64,000 nt of DNA, taken from positions 1 to 64,000 of the forward strand of contig NW_015162104.1 of the NCBI RefSeq assembly GCF_001447785.1. The letters run 5' to 3'. The stretch is from Gekko japonicus. Its lineage: Eukaryota. The translations under genes and the position numbers were made by a program. Positions 10,245 through 57,195 of the stretch are shown here, piece after piece. The notes beneath the pieces are model-generated. The model saw only the letters and a program-made list of their open reading frames with translations. It had not been told where the DNA came from and did not search any database. Position 1 is the stretch's first letter. Each line of letters starts with the position of its first letter.

Positions 10245-10833
10245 ACTGGTGGTTCACACTGGCGGAAGGAAGCACACAAAAGTCGCATCATATAGTATTG
10301 CTACTAGGGAAGGGCAGAACTCATGGGATTTTGTTATGGTTACCATCATCACAGTACCTCCAGAGGACTCTACACAGGACTCTCTCGAGAGAAAAAATGA
10401 CCCATGGGCTTAGGGCTGGGCAGCAATTGTGCTTTCTGTATGTTTTAGAGGGAGGTACAGAATCTTTATCAAAGGCACACTTCCCTTAGAGAGAAAAAAT
10501 GACCCATGGGCTTAGGGGCTGGACAGCAATTGTGCTTCCTGTATGTTTTAGAGGGAGGTGCAGAATCTTTATCAAAGGCACACTTCCCTTACTGGTGGTT
10601 CACATTGATGGAAGGAAGCACACAAAAGTAGCATCATATAGTATTGCTACTAGGGAAGGGCAGAACTCATGGGATTTTGTTATGGTTACCATCATCACAG
10701 TACCTCCAGAGGACTCTACACAGGACTCTCTAGAGAGAAAAAATGACCCATGGGCTTAGGGGCTGGACAGCAATTGTGCTTCCTGTATGTTTTAGAGGGA
10801 GGTGCAGAATCTTTATCAAAGGCACACTTCCCT
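10245..10833. repeat. Complex tandem duplication A-B-B-A-B
   Basis: A (about 142 nt) at 10245 and 10591; B (about 102 nt) at 10387, 10488 and 10732. Confidence 0.95.
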
Positions 10834-10888
10834 TTGTACCTATGTACAGGCAACATGCAGCCATGAAGATATCCAGAGAAGGCACCAC

Positions 10889-11128
10889 AATTCCTTTGGA
10901 AATAGAAAAATCCCTAACAGAGAAGTATGGCACTTTTCCCATAAAACTCTGAATGGCTCGACCTGAGGAGGTAACTCACCTCCCCGACACCTACCAGGTG
11001 GGTAAATTCCTTTGGAAATAGAAAAATCCCAGAATACTTTAACAGAGAAGTATGGCACTTTTCCTATAAAGCCCTGAATGGCTCGACCTGAGGAGGTGAC
11101 TCACCTCCCCGACACCTACCAGGTGGGT
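10889..11128. repeat. Tandem duplication, units of about 116 and 124 nt
   Basis: AATTCCTTTGGAAATAG...CCAGGTGGGT at 10889 and 11005. Confidence 0.95.
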
Positions 11129-11434
11129 TGCCGTTCAGTCCTGTAGGGAGTACTACTGAGAACAGGAGCTCTTCCTCAATCCATCTGTCCGGCCCCCTCA
11201 GATTGCCCTTCTAGATATGCATACCAGAGCTGCTCCTGGCCTGTCTACTTAGTTCTTTGTGAACATCAAAGAACACTGCCCTGCAACTCTCAGGTTGCAC
11301 TGCCTGTGCAAAGTCATCCTTATCATCAGATTTGAATTCTTTGGAAATACACACAAGCAAGCCCCACTGCTTGCTCCATAAAAAAAGGAAATGTAGCTGC
11401 ATTTGGTACTACTGACTCTCAGCTTTAGAAGTAG

Positions 11435-11440
11435 TTTATT
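11435..11440 (-). terminator. Candidate NOP16 polyadenylation signal
   Basis: AATAAA on the minus strand about 390 nt after the stop codon. Confidence 0.6.
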
Positions 11441-11449
11441 TTATCCAAT

Positions 11450-11791
11450 GTAAATGCTGCTCCTTTCCCCCGGAACAGTAGAAACTGTAAAATCAATGCT
11501 CCCTTCACTGCACCAGTCCAGACCAAGAGTCCCATCTGTGCAGATATTGTCCTGTGTTCTCTCACCAAATGGTAGGATTACATTTAACATACATAAGCTG
11601 CACTTTCTGAACACTAGAATAAAAGTAAATGCTGTTCCTTTTCCCCAGAACAGTAGTAACTGTAAAATCAATGCTCCCTTCGCAGCACCAGTCCGGACCA
11701 AGAGTCCCATCTGTGCAGACATTGTCCTGTGTTCTCTCACCAAATTGTAAGATTACATTTAACATAAGCTGCACTTTCTGAACACTAGAAT
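11450..11791. repeat. Tandem duplication with about 175-nt period in the NOP16 3' UTR
   Basis: GTAAATGCTG...AACACTAGAAT at 11450 and 11625. Confidence 0.95.
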
Positions 11792-11826: not shown

Positions 11827-11970
11827 TCATTTGTGGTCCATCTTTTCCTGCTGCAGAGAGGCACAAAAAGCTTGGTACTCCTCAGGGTAGAAGCGTTTAT
11901 ATACACTGATCTTCCCCTTTATTTGCTTTGGTGTGTCCTGGTAGTAGTTCTTCTCATCACGAGCCATAGC
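11827..11970 (-). CDS. NOP16: NOP16 coding exon 5 (stop)
   Basis: AMARDEKNYYQDTPKQIKGKISVYKRFYPEEY...MDHK*; total CDS 543 nt. Confidence 0.95.
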   Translation of the reverse strand, partial: AMARDEKNYYQDTPKQIKGKISVYKRFYPEEYQAFCASLQQEKMDHK

Positions 11971-12361
11971 CTGAAAGTTGAAGGAAAGAGTTAATAGCTG
12001 AAGAAGTCAAGCAGCAGCTTCAAGAAGGCCCTCCCACACCCAGAAAGCAAGGACTCTGCTGTGCATCAAGACGCAAGCTCAGTCTGTTCACAACACAAAT
12101 AAGAAGTGGCAAGCACAGAACAAACAGAGGCACTCAAAGGGTAGATACAATCCATTGGCGTTCAGCACAGAGAAACAAGTGGTTTCATCTGACAGGAAAT
12201 CTGTCATGGGTGAAAAGAGGAAGCCAGCAGAATGCCAATAAGCGTGTTCTACTACTTCCTGTTGAGGAGATCAGGAAGTTCTGGAAGTCACGCTAACAGC
12301 TGCAAGCATTCAAAATGGGGCTCTTAAAGTCTTTCACATCTTCAATAATTCAAGCATCTAC

Positions 12362-12468
12362 CTTGTAGTTTTCACCATGATTCCGGATCATGTGCTGAAC
12401 GTAGTCAATGAGATCTCTGGAGAGGGTCTCTGACTTCTTCTCTGGGAGGCTGGCTTGATATTCCAACT
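12362..12468 (-). CDS. NOP16: NOP16 coding exon 4
   Basis: ELEYQASLPEKKSETLSRDLIDYVQHMIRNHGENYK; acceptor catccag|, donor |gtagat. Confidence 0.95.
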
Positions 12469-13216
12469 CTGGATGGGAGTGAGGGAGACAATACAGTGAG
12501 GCAACAGAAAACTACTTCACACTGCAGATGCCTGTTCTGGCAGAAACCGCTAGATTTGACTAGTGCACTGGTCTTCAAGTGATGAGTTCTGATGCACAAG
12601 TTAGTCACATCCTGCCCTACTGAGATACAGCAGCTCTCCACTAATTTTTGTTTCAGGTTTTTAAAGGAAAATCAAGGAAAGAAAAGGCAAAATACACATC
12701 AGGGATATGACTAGCTACAAAGCAGACCAGAGCATCTTTACTTTTCAGTACCTAAAGAAAAGAATTTCAGCAGGGAAACCCCTTCACAACAATACTGCAC
12801 CTACCAGAATCCCCCCTTTTGTATCTGGTCACCCTAAGAAACATAGAGTAAAACCATTAAGGGTGAATCCCATCTTGGTTTAGAGGTAGTTCCTGCCTCT
12901 GTAAATGCTGAAGACTGCTAAACTACCAGGATCATAGCCATTCAGCCTCTGCCAACTGCAGTGCCCACTTTTATGAAAGCAGCAAGTCTGATGGGCTCAA
13001 AGGAAAATATCAACCTAATCTAATCTCATAATCCTAACAGCCAAAATTAATGAGAGTGACTTCATACCTGGAACATTAGGTATCACTGATAACAGTGATG
13101 TATGATTTGTGTGTATGAGAAGGAAATCCGACATTTTTGGTTCTACTATTTTCATACAGTAGTTAAAGGCACAGGATGAAATATGTTTCCTGTATGTTAA
13201 TTATGTGTTACATGAA

Positions 13217-13880
13217 TGGAGAGGAGACTGCACTCCCCTTGAAGGAACAGGTTCACAGTTTGGGGGTGTGCTTAGACCCAGGCATAGTGCTAGATAAGCA
13301 GGTGGCAGCAGAGACCAGGAGTGCCTTTGACTGGTTAGCCAGCTGCAGCCTTTCCTGGGCAGAAAAGATCTGGCCACTGTGGTGCATACCTTCGTTATAG
13401 CTAGATTAGGTCACTGCTACGTGAGGCTGCCCTTGAGAAGTATTTGGAAACTTCAATTGGTACAGAATGCTGCAGCCAGGATGTTGACTGGAGTGGGCTG
13501 TAGGGATCGTGTCATTTCAGTCTTGGCCCATCTACAATGGCTTCCAATTTGTTTTCTGGGCACAACCAAGGTGCTAGTCTTGACCTTCAAAGCCCTGTAC
13601 GGTGTGGGACCAATATTTCCTGAAGACTATCTACTTACTTATGAACCTGTCTGACTACTTCGGTCATCCTCACACACCCTGCTGTGGGTGCCCTTGCCTT
13701 CAGAGCTTAGGTGGATGGCAACCCAGGAGAGCGCCTTCTTGGCACCCAAGCTCTGGAGCTCTTTCCCCGAGGAGATTTGTCTGTCCCCTTCTGTTGCCAT
13801 CTTCCGCCAGTGGGTGAAGACTTATTTTGTTTCATTTGGCATTCCCTCAGTGATCCCTCCTTCCACCCCGATGTTTTAAT
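13217..13880 (+). mobile_element. L2/CR1-group LINE 3' fragment
   Basis: Decayed ORF2 C-terminus: KLQLVQNAAARMLTG...LAHLQWLPI...KVLVLTFKALYG. Confidence 0.8.
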
Positions 13881-14049
13881 TGCATTCATTAATTATTTAT
13901 AACATTTACTAGCCACCTTTCTTCCTTACAAAGCTCAAGCTGGCTTCCAATATAAATAAAATACAATTACAATGTACGTTAAAATACACAAAACCAAAAT
14001 TTAAAATGACAATTCAGGACCGCTTTAAGCAAAGGAAGTCCTAAATAAA

Positions 14050-14649
14050 TTCAGTTGGGCAAGCTGTGTTGGTCTGAAACAGCAGAGCAAAGTTTGAGTC
14101 CAGTGGCACCTTTAAGACCAACAAAGTTTTATTCAAGGTAAGAGCTTTTGTGTGCAAGCACCTTCAGATACAGAAGATGCCAGATACAGAAGATGCTATA
14201 AAGGCACCTCCATGCTTGAGAGGAGATGGGTGGCAGGGTCTCAATGAGTTACTCTCAGCATTCCGCAATTAACGATACATCAATCTCCAATTTTGAGATA
14301 TTTATTTCCTTCACTGTTTTCCCCCCAGAATTGAACCCCCCAAAATGGTAACCATATAAACTAAGCTTATTATCACTGTTTGATCCTTGAATCTATTAAA
14401 CATCTTCATTATGCTGTACGATGATTTACTGCTATACCTATATGTATGGACTGTTAATTTCCATTTTTGTTTCTGTCTCTGTATTTAATTGGGCCTTTCT
14501 GGTAACTGACTCCCCCCCCTCCTTTATGTGATGGTTGAGAAAATTCTGTTTCACGGTATCTGAAGAAATGTGCATGCACATGAAAGCTTATGCCTTGAAT
14601 AAAACTTGGTTGGTCTTAAAGGTACCACTGCACTCAAACTTTGTTCTGC
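14050..14649. mobile_element. Penelope-like element with inverted terminal repeats
   Basis: About 14087-14171 is an inverted copy of about 14556-14649; 13-bp TSD AGTCCTAAATAAA (14037-14049 / 14650-14662); related decayed ends at about 40570-40780, 57650-57750 and 59105-59222. Confidence 0.7.
14555..14594 (+). ncRNA. Minimal type I hammerhead ribozyme motif
   Basis: GGUAU-CUGAAGA-A-AUGUGC(AU)GCACAU-GAA-AGCU-U-AUGCC: stem I, core, stem II and palindromic stem III. Confidence 0.6.
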
Positions 14650-15537
14650 AGTCCTAAATAAAACAGTCTTCAGGTGCCTTCTTTTGCTGAAATAAATGTT
14701 ATTATTTTTAACACACTTCAAACAGACAAACAAACATACACGAGAGCAATAGTAGCATCATCAAATCTCTTAAGTCATCCTAATACATATATCTATTAAC
14801 CAATTTTCACTCAATACGTGGTTTTTATTACTACTAACCTATATTTTACAATCTAACCTTTTATATTTCTGTTCTATAAATCTAACTATGCATATATCTT
14901 GAAATTACCTATTCACTTCAATCTACAAATTTAATTTCATTTCTAATAATAATCAAAAACAAGTTTATCCTGTTTAAGCTTTCTATAATAACCCTTTATA
15001 GACTTATTGATCTAGTCATTATAATATTTTTATAAGTACAATCTATAAAATTCTCTGTAATTATATTTTCCCTAAACATTCTTCTCTAATTAACTTTGTT
15101 CATGTGAGCATTTATAACGTGTATTTATAATTTGTATATTTATAACCTTTTTAAATGTTTCTTATTTTATCACAACTTAATGACACGTGTTTATAAAGCT
15201 TTTCTTTTTTAAAAAAAATTATATATTTTAAGTTTTCAAAAAGAAAAGAAAATAGTGAGAGCAATACATTTTAAAGGAAATCCATGTCAATGTCTCATAC
15301 ATAACATCGTTTTGCTTACAAAATTAATTTTTCTGCTTATTTATAGGCCTTTGTAGGGGCAGAAAGGCAGAACAGAAATTTTGTAAATAAATAAATACTT
15401 TCTTTAGTCTGTCCTGAGTCTACTAACCCATATTTATCTATAACCTATTGCTGTAAATCTCCAAGGCAGCTAACAAACAGTTGCAAATTAACATATACAT
15501 TAAAAAACTGGGATTATATTTAGAAAATGATACTGCA

Positions 15538-15741
15538 CACATGAAGTTGCCTTGTATCAGACCACTGGCCCATCAAAGTCAGGAATTATTGTCTACTAGA
15601 CTAAATGTGGCTCTCCAGGGTCTCAGGTAGGTCTTTCACATCACCTACTCCCTGATCCTGTGTACTGGAGATGCTGGGGATTTAACCTGGGACCTTCTGC
15701 AAGCCAAACAGATGCTCTGCTACTAAGCCACAGCCCCTCCC
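15538..15741 (-). mobile_element. tRNA-derived SINE (second family)
   Basis: Minus-strand head GGGGCTGTGGCTTAGTAGCAGAGCATCTG...CCAGGTTAAATCCCC; relatives at about 41965-42085 and 49790-49960. Confidence 0.6.
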
Positions 15742-15932
15742 TCTGATGATGATGATGAACAATAATTAATATTGGAATGCATACATGTGCTCTTCTATGG
15801 CTCAAACCCCTACATCAGCTTTAAGTACTGTTACTGTGAATATCAACAGTACTTAAAGCTAATTACTAAAAACTAAAGCTGTTACTGTGAATATATGGGC
15901 TGCAGTGGCTCAAGTGGTTAAGAGGCTGAACT

Positions 15933-17728
15933 GCTGAAGACTTCCGGTTTCGGCGACTTGCTGGTGGGTGTGCTCCAACGAAGCTCCGATAAGAGCGGCC
16001 CGTGATCGTGCCGGACGGGAGGGGTCCCAGATGATTCTGGGTCCCCCCAGAGCCCTCCGAGGGGGCTGGTAGCCTGGGGTGCGTGGGATGCCTCTCCTGA
16101 GGCAACAGCCGAAGGATTGAGGCTCCTCTTTGCCCCGACAGGTCTCGCTGCCACGAGACCAGCCATGGTATCAAAGACACACACCGGAGTGAGTGTGCAA
16201 GAGATCGGGTGATAGGAGATGTTCCCTATCTCCTGAAGCAAATTGCGGAGTAAAGCGTAAGTGAATACTTATTTTAACAAAGCAAGCGATCAAGCGTAAA
16301 ATCACAAAGCTGCCCCAAAGCCCCAAATGTAGCACAGGGGAGGAGTTAACCATACCCTGGAAAGAATATCCTATAAAAGGAAGAAAACGAGGGGCAAAGT
16401 GGCGGCTATGACAGGAGAACAATAATCTAGCCGAGCAGTGTGCAGACTAGTAAGAAAAGTGCAACTCACAGATCTTCAGAGATTTTAAAGAACTTTTCCT
16501 TTTAATGTAAACATGTTGCATTGGGCTGAAAAAATAGCGTCCAGGGCGAAACCTTCTTCAGGAACTACCAGTTCAACGACGCCAGTCTCCAGACTGGAAG
16601 CAACCACAGACTTCCCTAAGATGATTGCTGCAGCACTGCACCCTCTGCTGGATCAGATGACTAACCTCAACAACAACTTTGATGCTCTTCAAAAGGAACT
16701 GAAAGAAACTAGCATAAGAACAGAGAAGACAGCCAAAAAGCTGAAAAAGGATGATGATAAATGCGTTAAATCAAAGACTGGAGGTAGTGGAAAAAGAAAA
16801 GACCTCAGAGTAAGAACAGCTGTTACAACTGCAGATGGAAAAGTCATCATATGTCCTGAGATTTCAAGGGATTCCAGAAAAAAAAGGAGAAAACCTGAAA
16901 GAGATCTTAAGCGAAGCCTTCGCTTCAGTGGCAGACTGTAAAGCGGAATCATTACAAAGCAATATGGATATGGTATACCGTACCTATCCAGAATTTATTA
17001 AGAAAAACAAGCTGCCCAGTGAAGTGTTTGTGAAATTCTCTAACAGGTCAACAAGAGATATGATACTGAAAGCAACTAACGGAATAACCTTAAAAGTCAA
17101 AGGAGAAGAAGCGAAAGTTTTAAAAGATGTTCCATCTGAGGTGAGAAAAAGCAATATAGAAACCTGACATTATTTCTGCAGAAAAACTCCACTCCCTACA
17201 GATGGGTTATTCCAGAAGGACTTTTCTTCAACTTTAAAGAGAAAAAAGAAAAGATTGACTCTGTTACAAAAGGAAAAGCGGAGGACAAAAATGCTACAGA
17301 AGATAATAGTGAACACAGATCGAGAAGCAGCGGTAGCTCATCGAGTAGTTCTCCAGAAGGAACTCTAGACTCTGAATCAGAATTAGGAGTAGTGGCTCCT
17401 AAGCCTCTCAAAATTAAGCTGACCTTTGATAAAAACAAACATAGAGGGGGGAAAACCAATAAATAGCTTAACTCTGAATATGTGATTTCTTTTTTATTGA
17501 AATACTAAGATGCACCCACTATGACTAATTATGCCTGTATTTGTTTGAACTAGTAATATTAGTAGCTAATCTCCATTTCTTAAAAAAAACTAAACAATAG
17601 GGAAACACCAAGTAATTGATGTATAGACTGTTATGATCCTTGCTAACTCTGTATTTTAGTTTAGAAGATCCCTTACCCTTATTCCTTGTAATATGTAGAG
17701 ATTAAAAGCAATAAAAATGTTAAAAAAG
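15933..17728 (+). mobile_element. L1-derived ORF1-only non-LTR retroelement (HAL1-like architecture)
   Basis: 12-bp TSD AGAGGCTGAACT (15921-15932 / 17729-17740); CpG-rich 5' end; disrupted L1-type ORF1; AATAAA at 17710-17715 and a short A tail; no ORF2. Confidence 0.8.
16513..17466 (+). pseudogene. Disrupted L1 ORF1p (coiled coil, RRM, CTD and a Ser-rich extension)
   Basis: Heptad-rich N-terminus, LRFQGIPE, VFVKFS, VLKDVP, YRWVIPEGL; frameshifts near 16745 and 17150; in-frame TAA at 16811. Confidence 0.8.
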
Positions 17729-18376
17729 AGAGGCTGAACTCCAGACCAGAAGGTCGGTAGTTCAGCAGTTTGAGACCTGAGTGCCGCATGACGGAGTGAG
17801 CTCCTGTCTCTAGTTCCAGCTCCTGCCAACCTAGCAGTTCGAAAGCAAGAAACTGCAAGTAGATAAATAGGTACTGCTTCGGTGGGAAGGTAACAGCATT
17901 CCGTGCGCCTTGGCATCTAGTCATGCTGGCCACATGACTACAGAAATGTCTTTGGACAGTGCTGGCTCTTTGGCTTGGAAACAGAGATGAGCACCGCATC
18001 GCTAGAGTCGGATTCAACTGGCTTTTGAGCAAGGGAAACCTTTACCTACCTTTACCTTACTGTGAATATAGAGAACAATTCAAACTTTACAGAGCACACT
18101 TGTGTACATGCCAAAACAGTCAGCTAAGGATACCTCAAAACCATCACTATTTAGCTAATGTTTCTTGAATATACTGAAAGAAACACTGGACATCACCAGT
18201 TTTTGACGTTTCATAGTGCAAACCTTTACCTACAGTGTTGCAAGACTTCAGAACCACAGCTGCCTCTAGACTTGTCCCACTTAAATTGTTTATACATTGC
18301 TACTGAATATAAAAATTAGTCTGCCTTTAGTCTCAGTATAAAAGGCGGGCTACAAATGAAGTAAATAAATACCAAC

Positions 18377-18446
18377 CGTTTAGTACATATGGCTTCCGCA
18401 CAATTTTTGTCTTTTTTTCCTGTCCATCAATTTCCATTCTCATCAC
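18377..18446 (-). CDS. NOP16: NOP16 coding exon 3
   Basis: VMRMEIDGQEKKTKIVRKPYVLN; acceptor ttcag|, donor |gttggt; 70 nt. Confidence 0.92.
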
Positions 18447-19112
18447 CTGAATTTGAAAGACAAGTTGGTTAATGTTATACATGATGGACTTCTATGTATT
18501 GCTTTGGATGCTCTTTACTTTTAGCTGCACCTATGGGTAATATTATTCACCTTGTCTGAGGGCTTTAGCAAGATCAGTCCACTTTTTAGGCTATCATGCC
18601 AATTCATATCAGTTTCTATTCTGTTCATCTTGTACTTGATCTAATCTGGATGCAATGGTATCACCAATGGGATTACTGGTAATATGTGTTGCAAAGAAAA
18701 AGACTAAGTTTCCTAGAATTAACTATTATGTAGGAACCATAATTTTAAAATACTGTCACAACCCTTCATGGTAGTCTATCTCCCACTAAAGAACAACAAA
18801 ATAGTGCTTCGTTCTGCTTGGACCAACTACTCAGCTGAAAAGCAAAGGGAAAAACAACCAACTCTATTATACGAGCCCAACATGTTCTTTATTAGTGTGA
18901 AGGGAAAAAAGTTTACTTAACACTTAAAATCTCTCTCTCTCTTTTTTTGTACTTTCACAAACAAGCAAACCTAATAAGCAGTTTTCTGTTGTGGACGGCC
19001 CTTTTAACATGCACATTAGATTACTGGGATGTGCTCTACACAGGGCTGCCCTTGAGGAGCGTCTGGACACTCTAACTGGGTCATAATGCAGCAAGAATGT
19101 TGAATGAAGCAA

Positions 19113-19460
19113 GCTGTAGGGACCATATCACTCCAGTCTAGTTCCATCTACACTGGCTTCCAATTTACTTCAAAGTACTGGTAATGGCTTTTAAAGTCTT
19201 GTATGGTTTGGGACTAGCATACTTTAAGTACTGCTTATTCCCATATGAACCTGCCTAGCCATTACAGTCATCTTCAGGGCCTTGCTTCAAGTGGCTAGAC
19301 AGTGGAGGCTAGATGGTGGGAACCCAGGATAGGACCTTCCCAGTTGCAGCACTAAAACTGTGGAATTCCATTCCCAAGGAGATTCATTCATCCATCCTCC
19401 TCTATCACTATCTTCCACCAGTGAGTAAAAACATTTTTGTTTCATTTAGCATTGCCTCAC
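19113..19460 (+). mobile_element. L2/CR1-group LINE 3' fragment
   Basis: Colinear with 13500-13845. Confidence 0.7.
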
Positions 19461-19917
19461 TGAGCCTCCTCCATATTTATGTTTTTAATGATTGTGTGTA
19501 TGTGTATGTGTGTGTGTGTATATATATATATACATGCGTGTGTGTATGGTTTTTAAAGTTGGTTTTTAATGCTTTTTAACTTCACTGCATTGAGGGCCTT
19601 AATTGGATAGAAAAGCAGGATATAAATAAGTATATACTAAGATGACATTTTTCCTACTACCTCTCTCTCAGGTATATTTGGTCACAGTCTAACTGCAGAT
19701 ACCACATGAGGTACATTGGTTCCTTTGTTGATGCATAAATGGTGCACTTTTTATGGGATAATTTTGTTTTATGTAAACTGTCTTGTTGGGACTGCATCCA
19801 TTCTTCACAAGCAGGTTGCCAACTGAAGCAGTAAACATCATATAAACTTTCACTCAAATTATTCCATTTATTTGACTCACACATCACAGTCTTATTTGGA
19901 GCTCATTCTACACTCAC

Positions 19918-20032
19918 CGGTTGCATTAACTTTGGAATGGGAACAGCCTTGTTTGGGTCAACAGCCAAGCCCATTTCAGCCAGGTTCTGTGATACAGATT
20001 TTGTGCGGTCCCAGGCATGTCGGATTTCGGAA
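19918..20032 (-). CDS. NOP16: NOP16 coding exon 2
   Basis: SEIRHAWDRTKSVSQNLAEMGLAVDPNKAVPIPKLMQP; acceptor ctttttag|, donor |gtgagt. Confidence 0.95.
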
Positions 20033-20778
20033 CTAAAAAGAAAGAAACAAAGAAAAAGCCACATATAAGCACTATCCATTCTTAAAGGCGCTTCCTCTCC
20101 CTTCTCATGAGAACTGTCACACATCTATGGGGAAATATGAACCACTTCACTCAATTGCCTAGAGAACTCCAAAGGGCATTCATTAGCTTTTTAAAGCATG
20201 TCAGAATCCTTGAGGGTCTGCAACAGTTATCACATGGAAAGCACATGGAACACTGCTAAATGTTGTTCCGGGGCAGCACTTTACTGATAGATATTGGAAG
20301 GGGCTATAACCATAGGGTGAGTCATTTTCTCCAATGGTAGTTAATTATTGAAATTGCTGGACAGATTCTTCAATAATTCCAAGAATGTCACAGAAACGCA
20401 TTATGGAGGTTATGGGTATCAAAAACAAAAAGCCAGCCTCCAATGCCAGATAGTAGTCAAGAGCGTTCCTGTGTCCTGCATTACATTGTACAAAAATATA
20501 CAAAAATGCGTTATTATTTGCAGTCCTAATTACAGTGCCTGGATCAAACTGAGACAGAGGCAAAACCAGAGCTGCTTCTCGCACTATCTCAATATAGTCC
20601 AGATCTTTTTCGTGCTGGTGTTAAAAAAAACCCCAATCACAGTGTGGTTCAAATATCCTTCGTGCTAGTGTAGGGGAAGAACCTCCTATTTAACTCATCC
20701 CTTGAGAAGACCGCACAACAAAAGCTCGAATCTTCCCCTCCCTTCGTATTAACCCCAGCTGTCTCTTTGTCTTCTTAC

Positions 20779-20885
20779 CATTTTATACGGGGTTTCGCCC
20801 GCTTGCGAAAAGCCCTGTTCTGTTTTTTGCGGTTCACATTGTAGTTGTACTTTTTCTGCCTGTTTCTTTTCTTGACTTTCGGCAT
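20779..20885 (-). CDS. NOP16: NOP16 coding exon 1
   Basis: MPKVKKRNRQKKYNYNVNRKKQNRAFRKRAKPRIKC; donor TG|gtaag; 107 nt. Confidence 0.93.
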
Positions 20886-21204
20886 CGCGACAATAAGACC
20901 AGACAGACGATGCACGCGGCTCCTTCGCCAGTGAAACAGCACCGATTACCGCTGTAGCTGATAGGAAATGTAGTTCAGCTTCCCCTAGAAGTATAATCAA
21001 AATCTCAAATCAAAGCCCTTATATGGACTACATCTCCCAGAGACCAACAGCTTCTAATAGTATATTTGACCGTTTCCATATCCGGATCACAAAAGTAATT
21101 AACCGCAAGGTTAGAGGCGGACTTGTACGGTGGCTGAAGAAGGACAGTGTAGTGAGAGCGAAGCGCACATTTTTCTTGCTGTGGCCTTTAGTGTAGGGTA
21201 TCCA
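20886..21204. promoter_or_regulatory. Bidirectional NOP16/HIGD2A promoter
   Basis: Divergent ATGs 319 nt apart; ACTACA-N2-TCC motifs on opposite strands at 20963-20975 (-) and 21027-21040 (+). Confidence 0.85.
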
Positions 21205-21349: not shown

Positions 21350-21733
21350 GTAAGAGGGAAGTCGAGGCCTAGGGTGAAGGCATTGCTCACGAAGGGACGA
21401 GCCGCACACGGGACCCTTTGCAGATGGAGAGGGCACAAGACGGAGGGTTGCGAAGATCAGGAGCCGCCGCCTGCTGTCTTTTCTTTTCTTAAGACTCCTC
21501 TTTCTAGTAGGCCATAATTCAAAAGAGAAAGCTTTCTTTCCAGTATAGAAAAATGCAGTGACAGACAAGGCTTTGCCTGTTGAATCTCTCGCTTTCATGA
21601 GGTTGTTATAGCAGTAGTGTCCCGCCCTTGTTCTATGGGTTCAGGGCGATATGCATGGTCCTCTCTTCCTGTATTTTTTTCTCACAACGATAAGTTCCGG
21701 AAGAAGAAGAAGAGCAGGTTTTTATACTTTGCT

Positions 21734-32683: not shown

Positions 32684-33036
32684 AGCTGCGGTGGCTCAAG
32701 TGGTTAAGACGCTGAACTGCAGGCTGTGGAAGGTCAGTAGTTCAGCGGTTCAAGACCCGGGTGCCGCAAGACAGGGTGAGCTCCTGTCTTTAGTTCCAGC
32801 TCCTGCCAACCTAGCAGTTCGAAAGCAAGAAATTGCAAGTAGATAAATAGGTACCACTTCGGTGGGAAGGTAACAGCGTTCCGTGCGCCTTGGTGTTTAG
32901 TCATGCCGGCCACATGACCACGGAAACGTCTTCGGACAGCGCTGGCTCTTCGGCTTTGAAACGGAGATGAGCACCGCAACCCTAGAGTCGGATTCGACTG
33001 GCTTTCGAGCAAGGGAACCTTTACCTTTACCTTTAC
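32684..33036 (+). mobile_element. Full-length Sauria SINE
   Basis: A-box GGTGGCTCAAGTGG, ACCTTT tail, TSD TTACAGCTCTCGAGAG (32668-32683 / 33033-33048). Confidence 0.9.
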
Positions 33037-36290: not shown

Positions 36291-36583
36291 ACTTCTCCTG
36301 GAGAAAACAGCTGCTTTAGAAGGCCCTTCCCCTCCCTAAGCCCCCCCTTTCCCAGGCTCCACCCTCAGATCTCCAGGTACTTCTGAACCTAGAGTTGGCA
36401 ATCCTACTCCTGTAGTAAGAAGTTTGATATAGAAGTAACTTCTCCTGGAGAAAACAGCTGCTTTAGAAAGCCCTTCCCCTCCCTAAGCCCCCCTTTCCCA
36501 GGCTCCACCCTCAGATCTCCAGGTACTTCTGAACCTAGAGTTGGCAATCCTACTCCTGTAGTAAGAAGTTTGATATAGAAGTA
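36291..36583. repeat. Tandem duplication, 147-nt period
   Basis: ACTTCTCCTGGAG...ATAGAAGTA at 36291 and 36438, near-identical. Confidence 0.95.
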
Positions 36584-56428: not shown

Positions 56429-57195
56429 TACGTCAGAGGTAGGAAATGTACTGCCTGGGATCCAGTTAGGTAGTGCAGTTCACATAGCCCATCTGCACAG
56501 AAAGGTCCTCCCAGTATACAGATCTTCATAATCTAAATGATTCTGAAGGAGAAACAACCCACTGAACAAGGGATTTTGGATGTTTGGATGGAACTTAGAA
56601 AACCTAGGATCTTCTGCTGTGCAACAAAGCATGGGAAATGGTGGATGATGAAAGGAAACATCTTGTTATCAGTGATCAGAGAGAATGTTTGAGGAAAAGC
56701 CCATTAAGAAGTGCCAGTGGTACCAGTTTCAGGTTGACACTGTCATATACAACTGAAAGATACAGCTTCCTTTCTCAGTATCTGAGCTCCATAGAGCATA
56801 TGAACAAGTACGTCAGAGGTAGGAAATGTACTGCCTGGGATCCAGTTAGGTGGTGCAGTTCACATAGCCCATCTGCACAGAAAGGTCCTCCCAGTATACA
56901 GATCTTCATAATCTGAATGATTCTGAAGGAGAAACAACCTACTGAACAAGGGATTTTGCTGACCGACTCTTTGTACATTTGGATGGAACTTAGAAAACCT
57001 AGGATCTTCTGCTGTGCAACAAAGCATGGGAAATAGTGGATTATGAAAGGAAACATCTAGTTATCAGTGATCAGAGAGAATGTTTGAGGAAAAGCCCATT
57101 AAGAAGTGCCAGTGGTACCAGTTTTAGGTTGACACTGTCATACACAACACAGCTTCCTTTCTCAGCATCTGAGCTCCATAGAGCATATGAACAAG
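56429..57195. repeat. Tandem duplication, about 380-nt period
   Basis: TACGTCAGAGG...ATGAACAAG at 56429 and 56809, with small indels. Confidence 0.95.

Follow-up and report, generated by a model that had tools for sequence, protein, structure and literature searches.

Does the ORF1 protein (ORF1p) of a reptile L1 carry a ligand of the BET ET domain? The question is raised by a 1.8-kb (1796 bases) ORF1-only L1 derivative located at 15933-17728 (+) within a 64-kb window of Gekko japonicus DNA (the whole stretch analyzed here), since the tail of its ORF1p contains the heptapeptide PLKIKLT. Vertebrate L1 is generally considered to pick its sites via its endonuclease, without a known host tether. 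If true, a BET ligand on ORF1p would represent a gammaretroviral strategy reached convergently by a non-LTR element, and would give a concrete nuclear function to a protein that is still described as having an obscure role (PMC5381506). The family's own copies would then record any insertion bias.

Structure of the element and its insertion site

The insert is flanked by a 12-bp target duplication (15921-15932 and 17729-17740) and is organized as follows.

15921-15932 (+): left target-site duplication AGAGGCTGAACT, within the head of a SINE; TT/AAGA just before
15933-16512 (+): 5′ UTR, first 300 bases CpG-rich; GACTTCCGGT at 15939-15948
16513-16765 (+): N-terminal part of ORF1 with a putative coiled-coil region, in the first frame from an inferred start codon; disrupted near 16740-16765
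16766-17146 (+): remainder of the putative coiled coil, then the RRM, in the second frame and interrupted in frame by the stop at 16811-16813
17146-17280 (+): ORF1p CTD; 7 bases held by other copies are missing here at about 17148
17281-17403 (+): acidic, Ser-rich linker, resembling the tails of relatives
17404-17424 (+): PLKIKLT, candidate ET-domain-binding motif
17425-17466 (+): basic C-terminus (NLS-like; family majority more basic) and stop codon
17467-17728 (+): 3′ UTR, 262 bases, AT-rich, with AATAAA at 17710-17715, a short A tail and no ORF2 remnant
17729-17740 (+): right target-site duplication, followed by the remainder of the SINE

No ORF2 match was obtained, as tblastn with ORF2-carrying relatives matched ORF1 alone in the element. 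Because the spacers of clade-1 L1 measure only 0-110 bases (PMC5381506), the 262 bases after the stop codon look like a 3′ UTR. The element is non-autonomous, in agreement with the original prediction. At its start the insert has GACTTCCGGT, the consensus 5′ end of clade-1 L1 from lizards (PMC5381506). Several features of the HAL1 type are present (ORF1 alone up to the 3′ end, target duplication, poly(A) signal and tail), and judged by them the element is a HAL1-type derivative of L1 in a squamate. It had also been proposed that the motif could explain the retention of ORF1. Such an explanation is not needed, since ORF1-only HAL1 arose several times in mammals (PMC5753468).

A second copy of the element was not found elsewhere in the 64-kb window. 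The insertion split a SINE, which we take to be of the Sauria/Squam type, into 15899-15934 and 17729-18042; uninterrupted sisters of this SINE are located at 32685 and 44308, with a further sister copy at 21647. The TT/AAGA ahead of the left duplication is presumably an L1-endonuclease-like site. The element lies antisense in NOP16, in the intron that separates exons three and four of those found (Pfam Nop16, E=3e-4, below the family cut-off), and 3.2 kb from a CpG island containing the starts of NOP16 and of a divergent gene. The NOP16 exons extend over 11830-20885 (-), head to head across this island with a gene at 21197 (+) which we assume to be HIGD2A (the piece tested gave no Pfam match). 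A single insertion near a promoter (n=1) says nothing on insertion bias and fits an ordinary endonuclease target. Elsewhere in the window, a tRNA-like match at 15666-15737 (-) (Rfam RF00005, 39.6 bits) is probably the head of another tRNA-derived SINE, and local tandem duplications of 100-400 bases with 92-100% identity (10245-11766, 36325-36583 and 56429-57148) are either real or assembly artefacts.

The encoded protein is an L1 ORF1p

A search with the RRM piece retrieved 216 relatives at E<=0.001, the best being 49% identical, and the named ones (5/10 looked up) were all five squamate. The window ORF1p pieces by themselves gave no L1 Pfam match; their relatives match PF02994 just below its cut-off, and a profile including the window pieces matched human LINE-1 ORF1p structures with E=1e-8. 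By this sequence likeness the encoded protein is an L1 ORF1p, with an RRM and a CTD homologous to those of LINE-1 ORF1p. The N-terminal region showed a heptad-like stretch with weak coiled-coil Pfam matches and is broken in this copy.

Three lesions of ORF1 precede the tail: a frame change near 16740-16765, the stop at 16811-16813 and a second frame change at about 17148. Because of this stop and these frameshifts, the copy is dead and no tail would be made from it within a whole ORF1p. The break between RRM and CTD at 17148 is this copy's own, as other copies hold 7 more bases there.

PLKIKLT lies in frame in the ORF1p tail

Translation of 17140-17466 (+) runs from the CTD (YRWVIPEGLFFNFK) through the linker (RSRSSGSSSSSSPEGTLDSESE) to VVAPKPLKIKLTFDKNKHRGGKTNK and a stop codon. 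This confirmed that PLKIKLT at 17404-17424 shares the frame of the ORF1p CTD and of the acidic linker. Hydrophobic alternation extends past the motif to a Phe (L-K-I-K-L-T-F), and the motif adjoins the Lys/Arg-rich end of the tail. A reading of the tail as the start of ORF2 or as another frame was ruled out by stops in the other frames and the lack of an ORF2 match.

To estimate the chance occurrence of the motif, the residues of the 61-aa tail were shuffled 200,000 times. The loose pattern Phi-K/R-Phi-K/R-Phi was found in 0.25% of the shuffles, the strict pattern [LIV]K[ILV][KR][ILV][TG] in 0.026% (~3 in 10,000), and the strict pattern with a leading Pro in 0.0015%. Within the 127,996 six-frame codons of the window the strict pattern occurred once, as PLKIKLT itself, and the loose one 24 times. 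Since the strict patterns were defined after the motif was seen, and a genome-wide scan covers very many windows, chance may still account for PLKIKLT. In such an explanation the tail would consist of a fast-evolving acidic linker and a basic NLS or RNA-binding end, PLKIKLT being an accident of A-rich L1 codons picked among many windows. The 24 loose occurrences are in line with it; the match of the leading Pro and trailing Thr as well (0.0015% by shuffle, with a post hoc pattern) argues against it. We regard chance as a serious contender, although we would not put it at even odds.

Searches with the tail gave little. No PDB chain matched its 28-aa end, an exact scan of metagenome contigs with the 21 motif bases returned 0 hits, no relative of the element was found in viral contigs, and the ESM Atlas gave no usable match. 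Word-indexed protein searches yielded no family member and recovered only two proteins already in the query. A single-sequence fold of the CTD and tail, of low confidence over its whole length (mean pLDDT 54.6), showed no structure in the linker. When the 32-aa tail was modeled together with an animal ET domain (71/75 residues identical to human BRD4 ET), the complex scored 0.30 twice against a mark of 0.34; the controls did not fold, and the result counts neither for nor against binding.

The motif resembles single-strand ET ligands

Ligands of this class form Phi-K-Phi-K-Phi strands that pair with an acidic ET loop. Six residues of PLKIKLT are identical to the CHD4 core PLKIKL and 6/7 to the MLV integrase core PLKIRLT, and the Phi-K-Phi-[KR]-Phi core of cellular KIKL-class ET ligands is present in the window tail. 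The precedents named in the original prediction were found as stated: the CHD4 epitope is KVAPLKIKLGGF, and the MLV tail, which holds PLKIRLT, ends PLKIRLTREAP; the corresponding epitopes of INO80B and BRG1 are PQLKLKIKLGGQ and RSVKVKIKLGRK (PMC10849530).

The gammaretroviral BET motif is W-x3-[RK]-[ST]-x2-PLK[IL]R[IL]xR, and its binding hot spot is the Trp, eight residues ahead of the Pro (W390A abolishes binding); in MLV the motif steers integration to near promoters (PMC4121521). The window tail departs from this consensus, since the regex fails and a Glu occupies the Trp position. A MLV-type motif was rejected because of this missing Trp. The proposed likeness to ET ligands thus held for a CHD4-type single strand, with identical PLKIKL, but not for the MLV hairpin.

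This distinction bears on the expected affinity. As single strands, CHD4 and BRG1 bind with Kd of 95 uM and 7 uM, against about 90 nM for the MLV hairpin (PMC12642612); for ASXL1, which binds as an extended strand, the value is 0.5 uM (10.1101/2021.07.15.452438). With no Trp for a MLV-type hairpin, any BET binding by the tail would likely be weak and of the CHD4 type. In BICRA, a peptide of LKLKIK pattern was weaker than a non-canonical epitope (PMC10849530), so that a pattern match is no guarantee of a working ET site.

The exact CHD4 core, its similar upstream V/A-A-P context and the rearranged nature of the element would also suit a capture of the tail end, by template switching at the loss of ORF2, from a host ET-ligand gene (CHD3/4/5-like) or an endogenous gammaretrovirus. 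Yet likeness ends at the core (TFDK vs GGF in CHD4), the upstream Trp strand of the MLV type is absent, none of the PDB chains matched the 28-aa tail end, and the linker resembles native ORF1p linkers. Capture is accordingly, to our mind, very improbable.

The motif within the family and its conservation

Part of the element was present in 20/24 listed public runs, none of which contains half of its words. Four public runs were aligned to 17080-17745, and from one of them, the DNA run X1, 968 contigs were placed on this interval. In public runs the family is present in multiple copies. None of the substitution rows listed (40 of 217) falls at 17404-17424; those near the motif are at 17393, 17394, 17403 (synonymous), 17441, 17448-17450 and 17458. 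In our reading of the table, every listed row reaches a share of at least about 64% in one or more runs. As no such majority-share row falls in the motif, PLKIKLT appears to be the reading of the family majority; changes present in a minority of copies do not show in these rows.

Relative to the X1 majority, this copy has differences at 13/186 tail bases (7% divergence). At this divergence, zero majority differences in the 21 motif bases have P=0.22. The motif is thus familial, but on these figures (with 40 of 217 rows listed) the lack of differences is no sign of extra constraint over the linker, a point in favor of chance. The majority also makes the C-terminal end more basic (H>R, G>K), and nearly all relatives end in basic stretches, which again suits an NLS or RNA-binding end. 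Among the 5 listed pieces spanning the motif, three are gapless with 84-87% identity and another contains 8 gap letters of unspecified position; one X3 contig has lost 7 bases at 17364 and gained one at 17430, so that its motif is out of frame. Dips of depth within the linker were considered as a sign of lower conservation and rejected, because they coincide with this copy's clustered mismatches.

Many contigs cover the tail and 3′ UTR, and at the 3′ end of the element the depth falls off, from 12169 to 538, which fits a shared end. A one-off early-polyadenylated L1 may be an alternative to an ORF1-only family, as no piece spans the whole stretch. At 17632-17723, X1 depth exceeds that of the 3′ UTR upstream two- to fourfold. 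This excess perhaps comes from 5′-truncated copies, or from a 3′ end common to other families, including perhaps an autonomous partner.

No RNA data set was listed as containing the element. In raw RNA run X21 the tail had thin coverage on both strands, and X22 had none at 17287-17608. The pattern fits intronic read-through and was not counted as evidence of expression. In another explanation, BET binding would be real but serve transcription of the element, shielding of new copies from silencing, or BET sequestration. L1 site choice is set largely by the ORF2p endonuclease, and the insertion site here fits that, which speaks for such a role. Conversely, ORF1p is established to bind RNA and not the element's promoter, and the X21 coverage of the tail is low and two-stranded. 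LANA, orf73 and other viral ET ligands do serve transcription and genome maintenance besides tethering (PMC9609653), but we find a role of this kind improbable.

Related tails are enriched in arginine-anchor-like motifs

Usable post-CTD tails (25-160 residues) were available for 53/150 relative matches. The loose ET pattern was present in 0/53 of these tails (shuffle mean 0.36) and a relaxed pattern in 1/53. With none of the 53 tails holding it, the motif has no cross-family conservation. In this respect the original prediction was partly supported: the motif appears to be in the family majority, and no relative's tail shares it. These counts also speak for chance; by shuffling, the loose pattern would turn up in some 0.7% of such tails (mean 0.355 of 53).

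Another type of motif emerged from an unbiased ranking, in which TR was the second most enriched dipeptide (25/53 tails vs 12.6). The pattern Phi-x-[T/L]-R was found in 13/53 tails, with a shuffle mean of 4.2 and a maximum of 12 in 3000 when kinship among the tails is ignored; the reversed and Lys control patterns, at 5/53 each, were not enriched. Motifs of [T/L]R plus a basic residue reached 31/53 vs 13.0 by shuffle. The tails compared are kin and some are possibly incomplete, so the anchor count is a lead rather than a proof. The pattern has the geometry of nucleosome anchors of viral proteins, LANA M6-R7-L8-R9, IE1 M483-V-T-R486 and foamy Gag Y537-x-L539-R540 (PMC9040877), and anchor-like examples include MVTR in P0003 and YDLR in P0001. 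Relatives contributing to the enrichment are P0001, P0003, P0002, P0006, P0013, P0039, P0066, P0120, P0131, P0141 and others. The window element's own tail has no Phi-x-[T/L]-R. The location of PLKIKLT at a place where relatives carry another chromatin-type motif, missing here, counts against chance, and the enrichment makes a tether function of the tail slot more plausible and suggests a swap.

Further features of these tails were noted. An AVGG/VGGAR motif recurs ahead of the basic end (VGG 9/53, GAR 9/53; shuffle means <1). P0066 ends PLQVRTRL, which matches both the relaxed ET pattern and the anchor pattern and is a possible intermediate. P0066 and P0003, both from Gekko japonicus and annotated as 'apolipoprotein A-IV-like', are L1 ORF1p mis-named in public annotation.

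A putative chromatin tether

We therefore weighed a reading of the tail as a chromatin-tether slot, carrying here a BET ligand, so that the family would have evolved its own tether. We judge this the most likely of the readings weighed, with about even odds of being true. Intact family members would have coated their RNA with ORF1p of their own making and relied on an autonomous L1 for ORF2p. The exposed tail would pair with the ET domain as a single beta-strand, weakly for each peptide, with avidity coming from the many ORF1p on one RNA. BET docking would keep the particle on chromatin that is active or mitotic, and L1 particles reportedly gain access to nuclei during mitosis (PMC8535693); docking could possibly tilt insertion to active regions. 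The motif would occupy the slot of the relatives' arginine-anchor-like motifs, one tether having been swapped for another.

A broader proposal is that tails of squamate L1 ORF1p are exchangeable chromatin-tether modules, most of them with an anchor like that of LANA, IE1 or foamy Gag, and that in the ORF1-only family a BET ET ligand took the place of the anchor, so that a vertebrate LINE would be drawn to promoters and enhancers, much like MLV, via its RNA-binding protein. We consider this generalization rather unlikely. The anchor-like motifs raise a wider question all the same: do reptile L1 particles ride chromatin like foamy virus and MLV? Our literature search, which left most subscription papers outside, found nothing linking ORF1p of LINE-1 or other non-LTR elements to BRD4, BET or the ET domain, and a single meeting report on LINE-1 ORF1p and the nucleosome acidic patch. 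If functional, the motif would be a new form of a known tethering strategy, proposed from one short motif in a dead copy.

Comparison with known systems

The closest structural parallel is HAL1. Like it, the window element is derived from L1, encodes only ORF1p and has its own 5′ promoter region, a poly(A) signal and a target duplication; unlike the HAL1 elements described in mammals (PMC5753468), it derives from clade-1 L1 of lizards, and its tail is long and acidic and bears an ET-like motif. A functional parallel may be offered by TRE5-A of Dictyostelium, a member of the L1 clade whose ORF1p contacts the targeting factor TFIIIB (PMC5911963). The parallel lies in an L1-clade ORF1p contacting a host factor that is bound to chromatin and bears on site choice, as is proposed for the window element; TRE5-A itself is autonomous, strictly site-specific and uses another host factor. 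No vertebrate counterpart of this ORF1p targeting was found in the literature searched.

For the relatives, the Phi-x-[T/L]-R geometry of their ORF1p tails is shared with KSHV LANA, HCMV IE1 and foamy virus Gag, whereas the tail of the window element is without the anchor pattern. This tail instead resembles the KIKL class of CHD4, INO80B and BRG1: an alternating hydrophobic and basic strand in a low-complexity region, with a PLKIKL identical to that of CHD4. It differs from CHD4 in that the core is followed by TF and not GG, and in being a candidate ligand, known from sequence, on a retroelement protein. Finally, the ORF1p of the element shares with MLV integrase, another protein of a mobile element, a PLKI[KR]LT core close to the C-terminus, where an acidic tail of low complexity ends. 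Unlike MLV integrase, the window tail has neither the Trp at -8, nor [RK][ST], nor the terminal Arg, and consequently no partner strand for a hairpin, and its motif is carried by an RNA-binding protein and not by the enzyme that cuts the target.
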